A DNA stretch of 64,000 bases from an uncultured bacterium (lineage in GTDB: Bacteria; Patescibacteriota; Minisyncoccia; Phycocordibacterales; Phycocordibacteraceae): positions 400,682 to 464,681 of the forward strand of contig CAVXAH010000001.1 in NCBI GenBank assembly GCA_963759775.1. The letters are read 5' to 3'. The stretch's first letter is position 1, and every line of letters starts with the position of its first letter. Position numbers and translations under genes: made by a program. Positions 20,124 through 53,676 of the stretch are shown here, one piece after another. The notes below the pieces were generated by a model, which worked only from the letters and a program-made list of their open reading frames with translations, made no database searches and had not been told where the DNA came from.

Positions 20124-20470
20124 CAGACAACTCCGGCGGTAAAATCGCCCGCGTGTTCAAGGTGCTCGGCGGTTCAAAGCGTCGTTACGCAGATATTGGC
20201 GACACGGTCGTTATCTCTATCCAAGTTGCTGAGCCCCGCAAACGCGTGAAGAAGAAAGAGGTGTACCGCGCGGTTGTGGTGCGCCAGAAAAATGCATTTC
20301 GCCGCAAAGACGGTTCCTACATCCGCTTTGATGAGAATGCGGTCGTCATCATTGAGAAAGCAAGGTAAGGAAATGGCACCGAAAGGGAACCGTGTGTTCG
20401 GTCCAGTGCCGCGCGAGCTTTCCGAGCGCGGCTGGCACGCATCATCTCGCTCGCCCCTGAAGTCGTCTAA
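20093..20470 (+). CDS. rplN: 50S ribosomal protein L14, two indels near the 3' end
   Basis: MLQDKSLVTIADNSGGKIARVFKVLGG...IRFDENAVVII in ORF 20039..20368. Continuation GNRVFGPVPRELSERGW (frame of 20274..20480) and the end IISLAPEVV* (stop 20468-20470) are each in another frame. Confidence 0.9.
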
Positions 20471-20476
20471 ACTCCT

Positions 20477-20791
20477 ATGAATACTATGCACATCAAGAAA
20501 GGCGACAAAGTGCAGGTGCTGCCGGGCAAGGACAAGGGTAAGAGTGGAGAGGTTATCCGCGCGTTTCCGCGCGAGTCGATGATCGTCATCGAGGGTGTCG
20601 CAATCGTCAAACGCCATCTCAAAGGCTCTCAGGGCCAGACGGGCCGCATTGTGGAGCGCCCACGCCCGATTCACGTCTCAAACGTCATGCTCATCGATCC
20701 AGATACAAAGAAACCGAGCCGCGTACGCATCGAGAAGCGTGATGGTGTCCGCACGCGTGTCGCTGTGAAGAGCAAGACGCCAGTCAAGTAA
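20477..20791 (+). CDS. rplX: 50S ribosomal protein L24
   Basis: MHIKKGDKVQVLPGKDKGKSGEVIRAF, KOW motif. Confidence 0.94.
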   Translation: MNTMHIKKGDKVQVLPGKDKGKSGEVIRAFPRESMIVIEGVAIVKRHLKGSQGQTGRIVERPRPIHVSNVMLIDPDTKKPSRVRIEKRDGVRTRVAVKSKTPVK

Positions 20792-31247: not shown

Positions 31248-32168
31248 TCACTCTACAATCTGATTTGGGTCTGAAAGGACAATTTCAGCGCGTCCTTCGT
31301 AGGAAACGATCTTTCCGGTGAGCGTTACTTCTTTGCCGGAGTATTGGGAAAGTGAACCAAATTGCTTTACATCGTCTGCGAAAATGACGGCAGAGAAGGG
31401 ACAGGTTTTGTAGTTCGTGCAGTAGTCAAAAAAGACCGTGCCGCTTTTGGAAGTGTAGGCGCGAAGGACCCTTCCGCGCACGGAGGCGTATTCGCCGATG
31501 TGTTTCGGGGTTTCAGTAAAATCGTACACGCCACCTGAAACACTCGCGGCGGCTCCTGCCGCCGCGTTTCCTTTATAGGCTTCAAGAAGCCGTTTCAAAA
31601 TATTCTCGTATGCCTGTCGAAGCGCTGGGTCGGTGCCGATCTGGAGAATTTCGTCGTTAATGGTCGTCGCGGACTTGGTCCAGTTGTAGCTTCCAAATGC
31701 ATAGGCCTGTTCGGTCACAAGAAGCTTCAAGTGCATGATGCCATTTCCGCTTGCGTGGCGTTCCGTGACTATAGGAATTCCTGCAGAGCGCAATTTCTCG
31801 GTGATAGGCGAGCCGTAGCTATTTGAGCTCTGCTCGCTGTCCATAATTCCTTTCACCACGACGCCGCGCTTATGCGCGGCGACAAGAGCATCCGCAACGT
31901 TGCTCAAAGTGAAGGTGTAAATCGCAAAATAAATATGGTCCTCGGCTTCGTTAATGAGCGCGATGAGCTCTTGGTCGTTTTGTTTTGCATCAAGGCTATA
32001 AATAACGCGCGTGGTGCCCGCCTTGGGGGCATCAACCGTCTGAACGGGGATGCTTACTGCGGCGCCGGCTACCGGCGCCGCTTCTCTTGCCCCGGTCGTG
32101 TATCCGACACCTCCTGCGGCTATCGCAAGTACGAGCGCGACTACCGCGCGCATAAGTTTCAATTTCAT
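31248..32168 (-). CDS. membrane-anchored/secreted phospholipase-D-family nuclease with C-terminal OB-fold-like domain
   Basis: N-terminal helix MKLKLMRAVVALVLAIAAGGVG. HKD motif GIMHLKLLVTEQAYAFGSYNWTKSATTINDE. C-terminus ...GEYASVRGRVLRAYTSKSGTVFFDYC...GKEVTLTGKIVSYEGRAEIVL. Confidence 0.8.
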   Translation of the reverse strand: MKLKLMRAVVALVLAIAAGGVGYTTGAREAAPVAGAAVSIPVQTVDAPKAGTTRVIYSLDAKQNDQELIALINEAEDHIYFAIYTFTLSNVADALVAAHKRGVVVKGIMDSEQSSNSYGSPITEKLRSAGIPIVTERHASGNGIMHLKLLVTEQAYAFGSYNWTKSATTINDEILQIGTDPALRQAYENILKRLLEAYKGNAAAGAAASVSGGVYDFTETPKHIGEYASVRGRVLRAYTSKSGTVFFDYCTNYKTCPFSAVIFADDVKQFGSLSQYSGKEVTLTGKIVSYEGRAEIVLSDPNQIVE

Positions 32169-32297
32169 CCCGTTAGAGGTAGGAAATCGTCAGACGATTT
32201 CCGTACAATTATGAACGAACGTATTAAATTTTGACCATCTCATTCAAGTAATGGTAGCACCGACTGATCTGCGGTTTTCACCTCTAACGGGATTCAT
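32164..32297 (-). mobile_element. MITE-like TIR element, family 1, copy 1 (123 bp) with flanking ATGAA direct repeats, sitting on the start codon of the PLD nuclease gene
   Basis: Minus strand reads TATGAT-GTGCCC-ATGAAT | CCCGTTAGAGGT ... GGAAATCG-TCTGA-CGATTTCC-T-ACCTCTAACGGG | ATGAAA (gene start). Plus-strand TIRs at 32169-32180 and 32280-32291. Confidence 0.6.
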
Positions 32298-32323
32298 GGG
32301 CACATCATAGCGTATCCAAATGG

Positions 32324-48339: not shown

Positions 48340-48428
48340 GGAGGGGTGGCTGAGCGGCTGAAAGCGGCAGGTTGCTAACTTGCTATACGGGTAAAACCGT
48401 ATCGAGGGTTCGAATCCCTCCCCTTCCG
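48340..48428 (+). tRNA. tRNA-Ser (anticodon GCU), class II with long variable arm; CCA not encoded
   Basis: Hand fold: acceptor GGAGGGG/CCCTTCC (one G-U pair); D arm GCT-GAGCGGCTGAA-AGC; anticodon arm GCAGG-TTGCTAA-CTTGC; variable arm TACGG-GTAAAA-CCGTA; T arm GAGGG-TTCGAAT-CCCTC. Confidence 0.9.
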
Positions 48429-48435
48429 CACTGTT

Positions 48436-49078: not shown

Positions 49079-49093
49079 TAGTATTTTCCTATG
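49079..49093 (+). promoter_or_regulatory. -10-like box + 6 nt + ATG (leaderless pilM)
   Basis: TAGTAT 49079-49084, TTTCCT, ATG 49091. Confidence 0.5.
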
Positions 49094-51421: not shown

Positions 51422-51703
51422 ATGAAACTTACACCTTCAACTATCGGGTTTGCGGTTGCCGGAATCATCGTTCTTCTTGGCGGGTACTGGTATGTTTCTT
51501 CGCCCAAGGAAGAAAAGACTCTCTCCGCTCTTTCCGGACCGCCACCGCTTGAAAATCAATTTCTCGTGCTTACCAACACGCTCGAGCCGATTGCCTTTTC
51601 CACCACTATATTTGACGACCCGCGTTTCAAGGCCCTGGTGAATATCACGACCCCTATCTCTTCGGAAGATGTGGGACGTCCGGATCCTTTTGCACCGCTC
51701 TAG
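51422..51703 (+). CDS. small bitopic protein of the pilus locus (93 aa)
   Basis: TM helix IGFAVAGIIVLLGGYWYV; tight spacing after the pilO-like gene. Confidence 0.55.
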   Translation: MKLTPSTIGFAVAGIIVLLGGYWYVSSPKEEKTLSALSGPPPLENQFLVLTNTLEPIAFSTTIFDDPRFKALVNITTPISSEDVGRPDPFAPL

Positions 51704-51736
51704 TTATTTTTTGTGGGAGTATACTAGATTCACGGT

Positions 51737-51863
51737 ATGAATCCCGTTAGAGGTAAACTACAGGCGAGTTAATGATATTCTTAATGAGATGATAAGGTCG
51801 AATTTATTACTTTCGTTAATAATCGTACGGAAATCTCAGATTTCCTACCTCTAACGGGATGAA
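51737..51863 (+). mobile_element. MITE-like TIR element, family 1, copy 2 (116 bp) with flanking ATGAA direct repeats, sitting on the pilB start codon
   Basis: TAGATT-CACGGT-ATGAAT | CCCGTTAGAGGT (51743-54) ... GGAAATC-TCA-GATTTCC (51829-45) T ACCTCTAACGGG (51847-58) | ATGAAC (pilB). Confidence 0.6.
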
Positions 51864-53676
51864 CTTTCTCACCACACTGGTTGACACCAACCTTCTTTCT
51901 GCGAAGGATCGCCTTGAGGTAGAAGCACGTCTTGAAAAGGGCACACCACTGAAAGAGGCGCTTCTTGAGCGAGGTGTCGTGCTTGCGGATGCGCTCACAA
52001 AAGCAGGAGACGCATACGGAATCCCATCACGCGTACTTTCCGACCCACCTGCCGACCAGGACGTCTTCAGATATATTCCCCTTGAGTCTGCAAAACATTA
52101 CGGATTCGTACCGCTTGCAGAGGTGAACGGGGCGCTTGAAGTGGGCATCATTGACCCCGACAACATAGAGGCGATGGACGCACTCCATTTCATTAGCGGC
52201 AAACTCGGGCTTCCGTACAAAATATTTCTGATCACAAAAGAGGACTTTGATCGCGTTATAGAGGCTTATCAAAACCTTTCGGGCGAAGTCGGGAAAGCCC
52301 TTTCCGAATTTGAAACAGCCGCCGCCGCGCCTGTGCCGAAAACAGAACGAACCGAGAAATCTATGCGCGCGCTCCCCGAAGAGGAGATGCTTGATCTTGC
52401 GGGTCGCTCGGACGCGCTTCAAGAAGATACGATGACGAATCTGGAAGGACGTTCGGAAACACTTAAAGAAGACGCGCCAGTCACCAAGATTGTCTCTACG
52501 ATTCTCCGGTATGCTATTGAAGGTCAGGCTTCGGACGTACATATAGAGCCGTCTCCTACAAAAACGAGAGTGCGTTTTCGTATGGATGGAGAGCTTCATA
52601 CCTCGCTTGAGCTGCCAGCTAAGGTGCACGAAGCAGTCGTTGCGCGCATCAAAATTGTCTCCAAATTGCGACTTGATGAGAAACGAAAACCGCAAGACGG
52701 TCGGTTTTCTGCGACCGTTGAAAAACGTCGCATAGACTTTCGCGTTTCCACGTTTCCAACCGACTTCGGGGAAAAAGTGGTGATGCGTATTCTTGACCAG
52801 TCGCAGACAACGGCGACCCTTGAGTCGGTGGGACTTACGAATGAAAACCTTTCTACGGTCCGCGATCTTCTTAAAGTGCCATACGGCATCGTGCTTATTT
52901 CGGGTCCGACGGGCTCCGGCAAGTCAACGACACTTTTTGCCATGCTCTCCGAGCTCGACCGCGAAACATTAAATGTCGTGTCGCTTGAAGACCCTATTGA
53001 GTATCAAATTCCCGGTGTTTCTCAGAGCCAGGTAAGACCAGAAATCGGTTATACCTTTGCGTCGGGCCTCCGTTCAATTCTGCGCCAAGACCCAGACGTC
53101 ATCATGGTGGGTGAAATTCGTGATAAAGAAACAGCCGCACTTGCGGTGCAGGCGGCGCTGACCGGTCACTTGGTTTTCTCAACCATCCACACCAACACCG
53201 CTGCAGGTGCTATTTCGCGCCTTGTTGATATGGGTGTTGACCCCTACCTTATCGCACCGACCCTGGTTGCCGTCATGGGTCAACGTCTCGTGCGCAAGCT
53301 TTGTGAAGGGGCGGGGAAACCGGTTCCGATGAAAGATAGTATCAAGGGTCTTCTTGAAAAAGAATTTGCGGACTTGCCGGAACAGTACCGCAAGAAACTT
53401 CCTCCCTTTAAACAATTCTACCGAGCCGCACCAACCGAGGACTGTCCGAATGGACTTCGTGGCCGGCTGGGCGTATTTGAAATACTCAAAGTCACCGACA
53501 CGCTTGAAAGAGCGATTCTGGAAAGCCCCGTTGAGGAAAAGATTTACCAAGCGGCACGGAAGGAAGGAATGTTTACTATGCGTGAAGATGCCATCATTCG
53601 CGCACTTGCCGGTGAGATTCCTTTTGAAGAAGTAAATACACTCGGGGGAGACCTTTTCCCCGAAGAGCGCACTTGA
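51859..53676 (+). CDS. pilB: type IV pilus assembly ATPase PilB (GspE family)
   Basis: Walker A GPTGSGKSTT; ...LRQDPDVIMVGEIRD...; TGHLVFSTIHTN; N-terminal MshEN-like domain. Confidence 0.95.
   Translation: MNFLTTLVDTNLLSAKDRLEVEARLEKGTPLKEALLERGVVLADALTKAGDAYGIPSRVLSDPPADQDVFRYIPLESAKHYGFVPLAEVNGALEVGIIDPDNIEAMDALHFISGKLGLPYKIFLITKEDFDRVIEAYQNLSGEVGKALSEFETAAAAPVPKTERTEKSMRALPEEEMLDLAGRSDALQEDTMTNLEGRSETLKEDAPVTKIVSTILRYAIEGQASDVHIEPSPTKTRVRFRMDGELHTSLELPAKVHEAVVARIKIVSKLRLDEKRKPQDGRFSATVEKRRIDFRVSTFPTDFGEKVVMRILDQSQTTATLESVGLTNENLSTVRDLLKVPYGIVLISGPTGSGKSTTLFAMLSELDRETLNVVSLEDPIEYQIPGVSQSQVRPEIGYTFASGLRSILRQDPDVIMVGEIRDKETAALAVQAALTGHLVFSTIHTNTAAGAISRLVDMGVDPYLIAPTLVAVMGQRLVRKLCEGAGKPVPMKDSIKGLLEKEFADLPEQYRKKLPPFKQFYRAAPTEDCPNGLRGRLGVFEILKVTDTLERAILESPVEEKIYQAARKEGMFTMREDAIIRALAGEIPFEEVNTLGGDLFPEERT

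Follow-up and report, generated by a model that had tools for sequence, protein, structure and literature searches.

A short inverted-repeat element sits exactly at the start codon of pilB, the gene for a type IV pilus assembly ATPase, in a 64,000-nt stretch of DNA from an uncultured bacterium of the Patescibacteriota (the whole analyzed stretch is called the window). The element spans 118 bp with 13-bp inverted repeats and is very probably a mobile insertion with target duplication. All structural hallmarks of a MITE, or miniature inverted-repeat transposable element, are present, an identified autonomous parent excepted. As a whole explanation, a MITE-like insertion that replaced the start signals of pilB is favored with a probability of about 0.6. 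The insertion took place within the TGAA at the start of pilB and duplicated it; the terminal A of the element and the duplicated TG re-create an ATG flush with the right end, and the original ATG is left orphaned behind the box TATACT. In this model, the element would bring its own leaderless-type start, arranged as at the genome's own genes, an extended -10-like box followed by 7 nt and an ATG, and pilB would be transcribed from inside the element. The internal ATG would open an open reading frame (ORF) of about 20 codons ending at a TAA in the right repeat, from which pilB would be reached by termination-reinitiation. Read-through transcripts would be poorly translated, with the pilB AUG sequestered in an end-to-end stem. 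The element would then act as a portable start cassette, and would hence be tolerated and kept at starts in compact genomes.

The insertion can be read to the base against uninterrupted pilB loci. In a search of 5.8 billion proteins for closer relatives of PilB, the three closest with readable DNA (L107, L108, and L109, with PilB 78%, 77%, and 75% identical to that of the window) had empty sites, GGGTATACTAAACGTATTGC-ATGAACCTTCTC, ATACTAGAAGTGCGCT-ATGAACCTTCTC, and GGGTATACTGATACATGCGACG-ATGAACTTTCTT, respectively, in comparison to the filled site GGAGTATACTAGATTCACGGT-ATGAA/T-element-ATGAACTTTCTC in the window (slashes mark junctions). All three read TATACT-N11/13-ATGAAC with homologous flanks on both sides, base-exact against the filled site, and the insertion point at pilB is A/TGAA/C; TATACT, once 11 nt 5' of the ORF, is now 133 nt away from it. 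A prediction made earlier from the sequence of the window (the original prediction) had placed a short inverted-repeat element exactly at the pilB start and had proposed that it parted a leaderless promoter from its ORF; both points are borne out by the empty sites, since the -10-like box common with them is the one now 133 nt from the ORF. That box is TATACT, found 11 to 13 nt 5' of ATGAAC in the three relatives, and not the TAGATT of the original prediction, a hexamer that the empty sites do not keep; the 6-nt spacer it had noted before the orphan ATG is indeed the main peak in the window. The orphan ATG (context ATGAAT, 51737-42) opens the short frame MNPVRGKLQAS-stop, as had been read, and all coordinates listed in the prediction proved exact when checked against the sequence.

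The gap before pilB measures 155 nt in the window and 3 to 83 nt in those empty relatives for which an upstream gene was called. In P0001 (Logan SRR14005100), the closest PilB relative at 81% identity, a 93-aa upstream gene is separated from pilB by 211 nt, a length compatible with one or two elements. A metagenome scan for PilB relatives covered 80 loci and 937 kb, and no element preceded pilB in any of them; in L027, L028, L052, L110, and L111 the gap before pilB is just 2 to 3 nt, and in the first three of these the upstream stop lies 2 to 3 nt from ATGAAT. Filled and empty sites are interleaved in the PilB tree, where the filled locus L010 groups with the empty L027 and L028 at 78 to 79% identity and the filled window falls outside this group; therefore, the element was gained more than once, or gained and then precisely lost. 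In its interior, the pilB copy of the window shares 0.51 to 0.55 identity with those at pilB in L010 and L018, compared to 0.66 with a second copy in the window, which points to an independent hit from an element lineage resident in the genome. Two copies in the genome VMGX01, one at secE and the other at a different gene, have interiors 0.90 identical.

The junctions were compared over 35 complete copies of the family. A perfect flanking direct repeat is present in 32 of them and decayed in 3; TGAA occurs 26 times and TGGA, TGGAA, TGCAA, TGAG, TGTT, and CGAA once each, giving seven different repeats of 4 to 5 bp. The flanking repeat changes with the gene and is therefore a true target-site duplication. 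In all of these copies the 12-mer end is bordered on its outer side by T at the left and by A at the right, and in three related elements from other metagenomes by C and G; since this outer base co-varies (T..A versus C..G), it belongs to the inverted repeat, and the ends come to 13 bp and the duplication to 4 to 5 bp. The junctions are consequently best modeled by inverted repeats of 13 bp that are symmetric, TCCCGTTAGAGGT / ACCTCTAACGGGA, and a duplication of 4 to 5 bp, which at pilB is more likely the 4-bp TGAA. The original prediction of perfect 12-bp termini and a 5-bp ATGAA duplication was right about the inverted repeats and about the duplication being real, and its lengths are to be amended to 13 bp, outer T..A included, and probably 4 bp. 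In the 12-bp reading the pilB element covers 51743-51858 (116 bp), with the ends CCCGTTAGAGGT (51743-54) and ACCTCTAACGGG (51847-58). A 5-bp duplication with an asymmetric extra T was rejected, as the outermost base co-varies and an insertion in a prepilin gene fits the reversed TGAA. The latter, a 62-bp GC-rich member at L025:1550-1611, interrupts the leader of a type IV prepilin in frame and gives the read-through MAAPRGFIPLEARSTRAAGARRALPLTG/FTLIEVIVS; subtraction of the element and one repeat restores MAAPRG/FTLIE, the presumed empty site. Its fit to TGAA in the opposite orientation is a reason to prefer the 13-bp/4-bp model.

The same junctions bear on the view that this is an IS200/IS605-type palindromic element (PATE/REPIN) moved single-stranded by a Y1 (HUH) transposase/RAYT, inserting 3' of ATGAA without duplication, with the right-hand ATGAA belonging to the element itself. 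The hairpin, the missing transposase, the same left pentanucleotide in most copies, and the long life of the copies would all agree with it, but the right repeat changes with the left (TGCAA, TGGA(A), TGAG, TGTT, and CGAA; TTTA/TAAA in the L105 set), which requires true duplication, and the termini are repeats of perfect symmetry where asymmetric subterminal hairpins would be expected. This origin is considered extremely unlikely.

Some copies have irregular flanks. The three related elements, with ends CCCCGTTAGAAA.../...TTCTAACGGGG, lie at L105:17439-17548, L105:9425-9503, and L028:2228-2288; the two from L105 are flanked by the 4-bp repeats TTTA or TAAA and the L028 copy is without a clear repeat. 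Each of the three has an internal ATG whose frame continues across the right repeat into the host gene, which begins with a prepilin leader or a signal-peptide N-terminus (both L105) or encodes a P-type ATPase (L028), and a solitary right end is found just upstream of L105:17439. Three canonical copies are without a clean left repeat, namely, L011:4240-4262, where a partial end CCCGTTAT stands directly 5' of the full left end, L003:6585-6595, with AAGAAT, a mutated orphan ATG, on the left, and L022:2140-2152, with ATTGGT. At L005:3570-3815 (minus-strand orientation), two elements from separate subfamilies stand in tandem, an AGAAAT-type followed by an AGAGGT-type with a common middle ATGAAT, and three copies of ATGAA thus precede a solute-binding-protein (SBP) gene.

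The extent of the family was determined with the right-end 20-mer GATTTCCTACCTCTAACGGG, flank unconstrained, against 185,579 species-representative genomes. Besides the window, 26 loci in 18 genomes were found, and the right end is followed at once by ATG in 28/28 instances, window included. The hosts of the 26 loci are labeled Kaiserbacteria, Parcubacteria, Nomurabacteria, Paceibacteria, Saccharibacteria, Patescibacteria, or plain "bacterium," and as far as sampled the family is confined to the Patescibacteria (candidate phyla radiation). Nine more elements at the same loci have only the terminal CCCGTTAGA/TCTAACGGG in common with these; their interiors are unrelated and often GC-rich, and their repeat extension co-varies on the two sides (AGAAAT, AGAGAT, AGAGAC, or AGAGGC). 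The canonical subfamily has 28 members, 26 complete and 2 cut by contig ends, with the consensus CCCGTTAGAGGTCAaAACC..TTGATGnTATGCTAAACaagATG(n12)AAaaAttATtATCAATAATCGTACGGAAATCTccGATTTCCTACCTCTAACGGG. Element length is 60 to 125 bp across the family and about 115 to 125 bp, with 13-bp ends, for the element described here, and the longest internal ORFs have about 20 to 40 codons. The 64-kb window contains 2 copies, VMGX01 likewise 2, and DAICZA01 has 11 spread over six contigs. An agnostic search of 1.2 Mb for 12-nt inverted repeats combined with ATGNN direct repeats returned 30 elements, all of this family, and no other element type, including in the 937 kb of pilB-relative control DNA. A literature search that included the literal end sequences found no description of the family, which is apparently undescribed before.

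Within the window, the exact 12-mer end occurs only 4 times, all at the ends of the two copies, and the hairpin pattern occurs twice versus 0.01 times expected; the two elements are accordingly not a chance product. Over the 35 copies the first 10 nt of the repeat are invariant; across 30 distinct copies, 98.6% of the cells of the 13-bp repeats are paired, and positions 10 to 12 change on both arms together across subfamilies, GC to AU in 6 to 8 copies and UA to CG in 2. The stem of the hairpin is invariant and its loop measures 3 to 7 nt. The hairpin palindrome is confined to the elements, save one chance match within a pilB gene, and on this ground a free-standing operator was rejected.

These structural data also address a nonmobile, vertically inherited cis-regulatory leader RNA of riboswitch- or attenuator-like type. 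The fold is strong against shuffled sequences (z = -5.6 and -5.7 for the two window copies), the element precedes orthologues in several genomes (SBP gene in five, pilB in three, and hpf in two), and its conservation exceeds that of 4-fold sites. A leader RNA does not account for the empty sites in the closest relatives and the patchy presence, the functionally unrelated downstream genes, the flanking repeats that co-vary with the gene, and the tandem and intragenic insertions. RNAalifold on 26 copies gave only the end-to-end stem and one hairpin, both invariant in the subfamily, with a covariation term of -0.09; the sole compensatory changes, at repeat positions 10 to 12, separate subfamilies, and the region 51650-51950 had 0 Rfam matches even at E ≤ 10. 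We consider a leader RNA very unlikely. The original prediction had tied its own standing to further copies, their flanking repeats, and compensatory changes at orthologous loci: many further copies were found, flanking repeats are present, and the canonical subfamily holds no compensatory changes, all in its favor.

The imperfect palindrome of 60 to 125 bp with GTTAGAG and CTCTAAC superficially resembles attC core sites, which are GTTRRRY / RYYYAAC, and a recombination site (integron attC or Xer/dif-like) was therefore weighed in place of a transposon. The order GTTAGAG...CTCTAAC is the reverse of RYYYAAC...GTTRRRY, the copies are dispersed singly at housekeeping starts and not arrayed as cassettes beside an integrase, and target duplications are present, and this reading can be practically dismissed.

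The second copy in the window (Table 1) had been foreseen at 32169-32291 as a diverged copy. It is real, but lies in the opposite orientation, and its ATGAAT/ATGAA flanks and its start codon had been missed. Oriented like the pilB copy, it is bordered by ATGAAT at its left end and at its right end by ATGAA, which belongs to a real start codon, so that both window copies sit exactly on start codons. The 12-nt ends of the two are identical and their interiors 66% identical, each being the nearest relative of the other; the second copy is without an ORF ending at the TAA of the repeat.

Table 1. Positions of the two elements in the window, their parts, and the genes they adjoin
Feature	Position	Strand	Remark
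Second copy, 125 bp	32168..32292	-	hairpin 32182-32202; 32169-32291 in the 12-bp-repeat reading
Gene-distal flank of second copy	32293..32309	-	-10-like TATGAT 32309-32304, 6-nt spacer, orphan ATGAA 32297-32293
PLD-like (PLDc_2) gene, 306 aa	31248..32168	-	ATG 32168-32166 directly 3' of second copy; duplicated TGAA 32167-32164
Mini-ORF of second copy, MRWSKFNTFVHNCTEIV-stop	32190..32243	-	TACCAT + 7 nt before ATG; stops in longer hairpin loop, 24 nt before gene ATG
Left flank box TATACT	51720..51725	+	-10-like; putative original pilB promoter; 11 nt 5' of orphan ATG
TAGATT	51725..51730	+	-10 candidate of the original prediction, 6 nt 5' of orphan ATG
Left target copy, orphan start ATGAA	51737..51741	+	TGAA 51738-51741 in the 4-bp model
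Whole element at pilB	51742..51859	+	118 bp, 13-bp inverted repeats
Left terminal inverted repeat TCCCGTTAGAGGT	51742..51754	+	
TGaTATTCT, internal extended -10-like box	51773..51781	+	
Mini-ORF, 21 codons, MIRSNLLLSLIIVRKSQISYL-stop	51789..51854	+	TAA 51852-54 within right repeat, 4 nt 5' of pilB ATG
AATAAT box	51818..51823	+	35 nt 5' of pilB ATG; in conserved ATCAATAATCGTAC block
7-bp hairpin/palindrome GGAAATC-TCA-GATTTCC	51829..51845	+	
Right terminal inverted repeat ACCTCTAACGGGA	51847..51859	+	final A is the A of pilB ATG
Right target copy TGAA	51860..51863	+	
pilB, type IV pilus assembly ATPase, 605 aa	51859..53676	+	Pfam MshEN + T2SSE; homologues named PilB/GspE

The start-codon habit is the most interesting property of the family. 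Real start codons are adjoined by 32 of the 35 complete copies (91%), and the other 3 are the upstream member of a tandem, a copy 7 nt before an ATG, and the insertion in the prepilin leader. Since the Pfam matches begin at profile positions 1 to 2, the adjoining ATGs are true starts. What the original prediction had described for pilB is hence not a peculiarity of that gene, as location at a start codon belongs to the whole family. The downstream genes are unrelated and encode PilB, SBP, FtsW/RodA, HPF, RecR, SecE, L9, L24, RRF, pyrophosphatase (PPase), and PLD-like proteins. The window contains 662 TGAA sites, 14 in ATGAA starts, 56 fully intergenic, and 592 touching coding sequence; if insertions had the same survival at starts as in spacers, 20% of insertions would be expected at starts, compared to 32/34 seen in the figures of the test (binomial P ~1e-20, an overstated value since some copies may be inherited, with ~24 distinct genes involved).

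Seven insertions split an ATGA stop/start overlap, where the TGA of the upstream gene survives in the left repeat and the downstream gene starts at the rebuilt ATG; these overlaps are not promoter sites, and a mechanism that recognizes transcription start sites therefore cannot explain all cases. In all 28 canonical copies the hairpin end lies next to the gene, though the ends are symmetric, and this uniform orientation argues for selection on the effect of the interior on the downstream gene. That the family is directed to start codons and kept as a mobile leaderless start module, with unrelated housekeeping genes brought under the shared GGAAATC/GATTTCC palindrome, is on balance an unlikely extension of these data. 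If true, the module (promoter, mini-ORF, and rebuilt ATG) would uncouple genes from their operon or native promoter, and a transposon-built regulon (pilB, ftsW, hpf, secE, rplI, frr, and others, dozens in all) would exist in the smallest bacterial genomes.

The junction of the ribosomal protein genes rplN and rplX is seen both with and without an element. In the window (20468-20490), the stop of rplN is closely followed by the ATGAAT at which rplX begins (ATGAATACTATGCAC...), and this site is unoccupied; at L014:1364-1493 an element lies between the two genes, and the ORF of the orphan ATG crosses it completely, to a terminal TGA that overlaps the ATG of rplX.

Signals inside the element were analyzed against the initiation habits of the window. 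Among 110 ORF starts, TANNNT stands exactly 6 nt before the ATG in 13, the main peak, compared to 1.4% of all ATGs, and there is a secondary excess at 11 nt. Shine-Dalgarno (SD)-like cores are not enriched, with 14.5% at window starts versus 12.2% before ATGs generally, and the genome looks leaderless-type and SD-poor. Adjacent window genes have stop-to-start spacings of -8 to +14 nt without SD; since such spacings are normal in the window, the TAA-CGGG-ATG at the right end of the element resembles a natural operon junction.

Conservation of the interior motifs (TGnTATGCT, ATG, ATCAATAATCGTAC, and the hairpin) greatly exceeds that of neutral sites. In the canonical subfamily the box is conserved as TGnTATGCT, followed by 7 nt and ATG, and the same layout recurs in two subfamilies with unrelated interiors, TATGAT + 7 + ATG in L012 and TAATAT + 7 + ATG in L016. 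In comparison to REP2/CREN-type repeats, a position immediately 5' of a gene start is taken by 32 of 35 copies, and a putative promoter box with an ATG is seen in 16 of 34. At orthologous genes, elements share 70 to 86% identity, whereas 4-fold sites of the adjacent genes are 34 to 53% identical (saturated), and the copies are therefore either constrained or much younger than the genomes. The 5' halves of the DAICZA01 copies differ greatly, and so the copies are not all young. We take this to mean that the 3' half and particular motifs are probably under constraint.

For the pilB copy, the original prediction had proposed AATAAT as the replacement -10. This box does lie in a conserved block and remains a candidate alternative internal -10, and in a sigma-70 scan of the second copy its equivalent CATAAT was paired with TGGTCA; the better-supported candidate for the internal start is TGaTATTCT with 7 nt and ATG at 51773-51791. 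In the predicted fold of the read-through RNA the two ends pair with each other, the A and U of the pilB AUG included, at -44.4 kcal/mol. On these signals, the chances that the element's own sequences drive the downstream gene are put at even. Translational bypassing (hopping) between the two AUGs was dropped, as the left flank is 6 or 7 nt depending on the copy and the frame is not preserved. A conserved peptide was rejected for the mini-ORF, which lacks periodicity, and a profile of the 38- to 40-aa read-through ORF matched nothing among 5.8 billion proteins.

The most serious alternative, though clearly less probable than a replacement of the start signals, is a purely selfish MITE. It would prefer TGAA, purifying selection would spare insertions that leave both ORFs intact, and pilB would still be served by the upstream TATACT, translation following unwinding of the stem, for instance by ribosomes starting at the orphan AUG. 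Such an element would show inverted repeats, a target duplication, and empty sites, as are seen here. The stops near the gene ATG in two frames, with the third closed at -39, follow simply from the repeat and the ATGA target. The orphan ATG is in frame with the TAA of the repeat in 115-bp copies and fully open in 7, and an eighth copy, L014, is also fully open to its overlapping TGA; the absence of codon periodicity from the mini-ORF speaks on the same side. What a selfish element leaves unexplained is the one orientation of all 28 canonical copies despite symmetric ends, the location of 32/35 copies at starts though intergenic TGAA sites are 4 times commoner than start-codon ones, the conservation of interior motifs far above neutral sites, and the recurrence of a -10, 7 nt, and ATG in subfamilies with unrelated interiors.

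In favor of a replacement of start signals by the element, the sequence TANNNT + 7 nt + ATG with an ORF to the TAA of the repeat occurs in 16/34 copies, compared to 0.6 ± 0.8 (maximum 5) in interior shuffles, statistics that overstate independence because the copies are related. Several observations weigh against such a replacement. The mini-ORF is absent or in another frame in about one-third of the copies, the second window copy included, and its variable codons show no 3-nt periodicity in the entropy profile; if it is translated, the act of translation would matter and not the peptide. The sigma-70 consensus scan misses TGaTATTCT, which has no -35, and in the pilB copy it returned only an antisense site, TCGACC-18-TATCAT at 51772-51801 of the minus strand, pointing away from pilB. 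The start-codon bias may come from the insertion mechanism or from selection. Some element pairs cluster by gene and not by genome (L010/L018, L007/L026, L015/L016, and L005/L024), which may reflect either lasting vertical inheritance or recurrent insertion at one site. As for mobility, no end pairs more than 260 bp apart were present in the window or 111 loci, with pairs up to 3 kb sought, and no transposase was linked to the element in any locus examined (the window and 1.2 Mb of loci); the full-element pattern had 0 matches in viral contigs, and blastn against plasmids gave none. The description of the element as nonautonomous and MITE-like in the original prediction agrees with this lack of any long element with these ends in the window or the 1.2 Mb of related loci.

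The insertion sequences IS1380, IS5, IS701, and ISH3 make duplications of 4 to 5 bp, and the ends of IS1380 begin with CC, a lead only. They are candidate parents by their similar duplication length; no member with the ends described here was found. In one empty-site relative (L110:2522-5136), the pil cluster is closely preceded, on the upstream side, by a gene for a large serine recombinase (Resolvase + Recombinase + Zn_ribbon_recom) and an ORF with a LAGLIDADG domain.

In general architecture the family is like other bacterial MITEs, such as the Correia elements of Neisseria (CREE/NEMIS), being short, with inverted repeats, target duplication, many copies, a long RNA stem-loop, and no transposase gene. 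Correia elements of ~100 to 155 bp adjoin genes and have functional outward promoters (PMC2229807, PMC3184786). Their 26-bp repeats and TA duplication are not matched by the TCCCGTTAGAGGT ends and the TGAA (4 to 5 bp) found here. Unlike in Correia elements, the last base completes a start codon, 91% of the copies are on starts in one orientation, a leaderless-type putative promoter is followed by a mini-ORF, and the hosts are Patescibacteria.

The nearest functional analogues of a portable start cassette are REP2 (CREN) of Neisseria and the Borrelia IR, by analogy and not by membership. These lie immediately upstream of many unrelated genes and supply a promoter together with a ribosome-binding site (RBS) and an ATG (PMC3184786). 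REP2, unlike the present family, is without terminal inverted repeats or reported target duplication and carries RBS and ATG itself, whereas here the ATG is rebuilt from the A of the element and the duplicated TG, there is no SD, and a leaderless start followed by reinitiation would apply. As in Rickettsia palindromic elements, a minority of copies is read in frame within coding sequence (L025, L105, and L028); unlike there, the majority of copies do not form part of the host protein, and the in-frame cases occur only in cleaved or tolerant N-terminal leaders. The ERIC (IRU) elements of enterobacteria are imperfect palindromes of ~127 bp in transcribed intergenic regions of operons and are conserved across species. 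ERIC, reviewed in PMC3184786, differs in not being tied to starts and in having neither a rebuilt ATG nor a fixed orientation to the downstream gene.

Genomes of Patescibacteria are tiny and gene-dense, with little spare intergenic DNA, and insertion at a start codon that restores the ATG and spares both ORFs shows how a mobile element can survive in them. If the internal signals work, promoters and translation starts would be movable between genes, and the element would offer a testable handle on the initiation of transcription and translation in an uncultured lineage. Gene callers will misplace starts or call spurious small ORFs at element sites. The 13-bp ends are a simple marker for tracing the transposase.

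Elsewhere in the window, a tRNA-Ser (GCT) gene lies at 48340-48429, ~660 nt 5' of a pilM-like ORF starting at 49091; it is the sole ARAGORN match and, at gathering scores, the sole Rfam match in the whole window.

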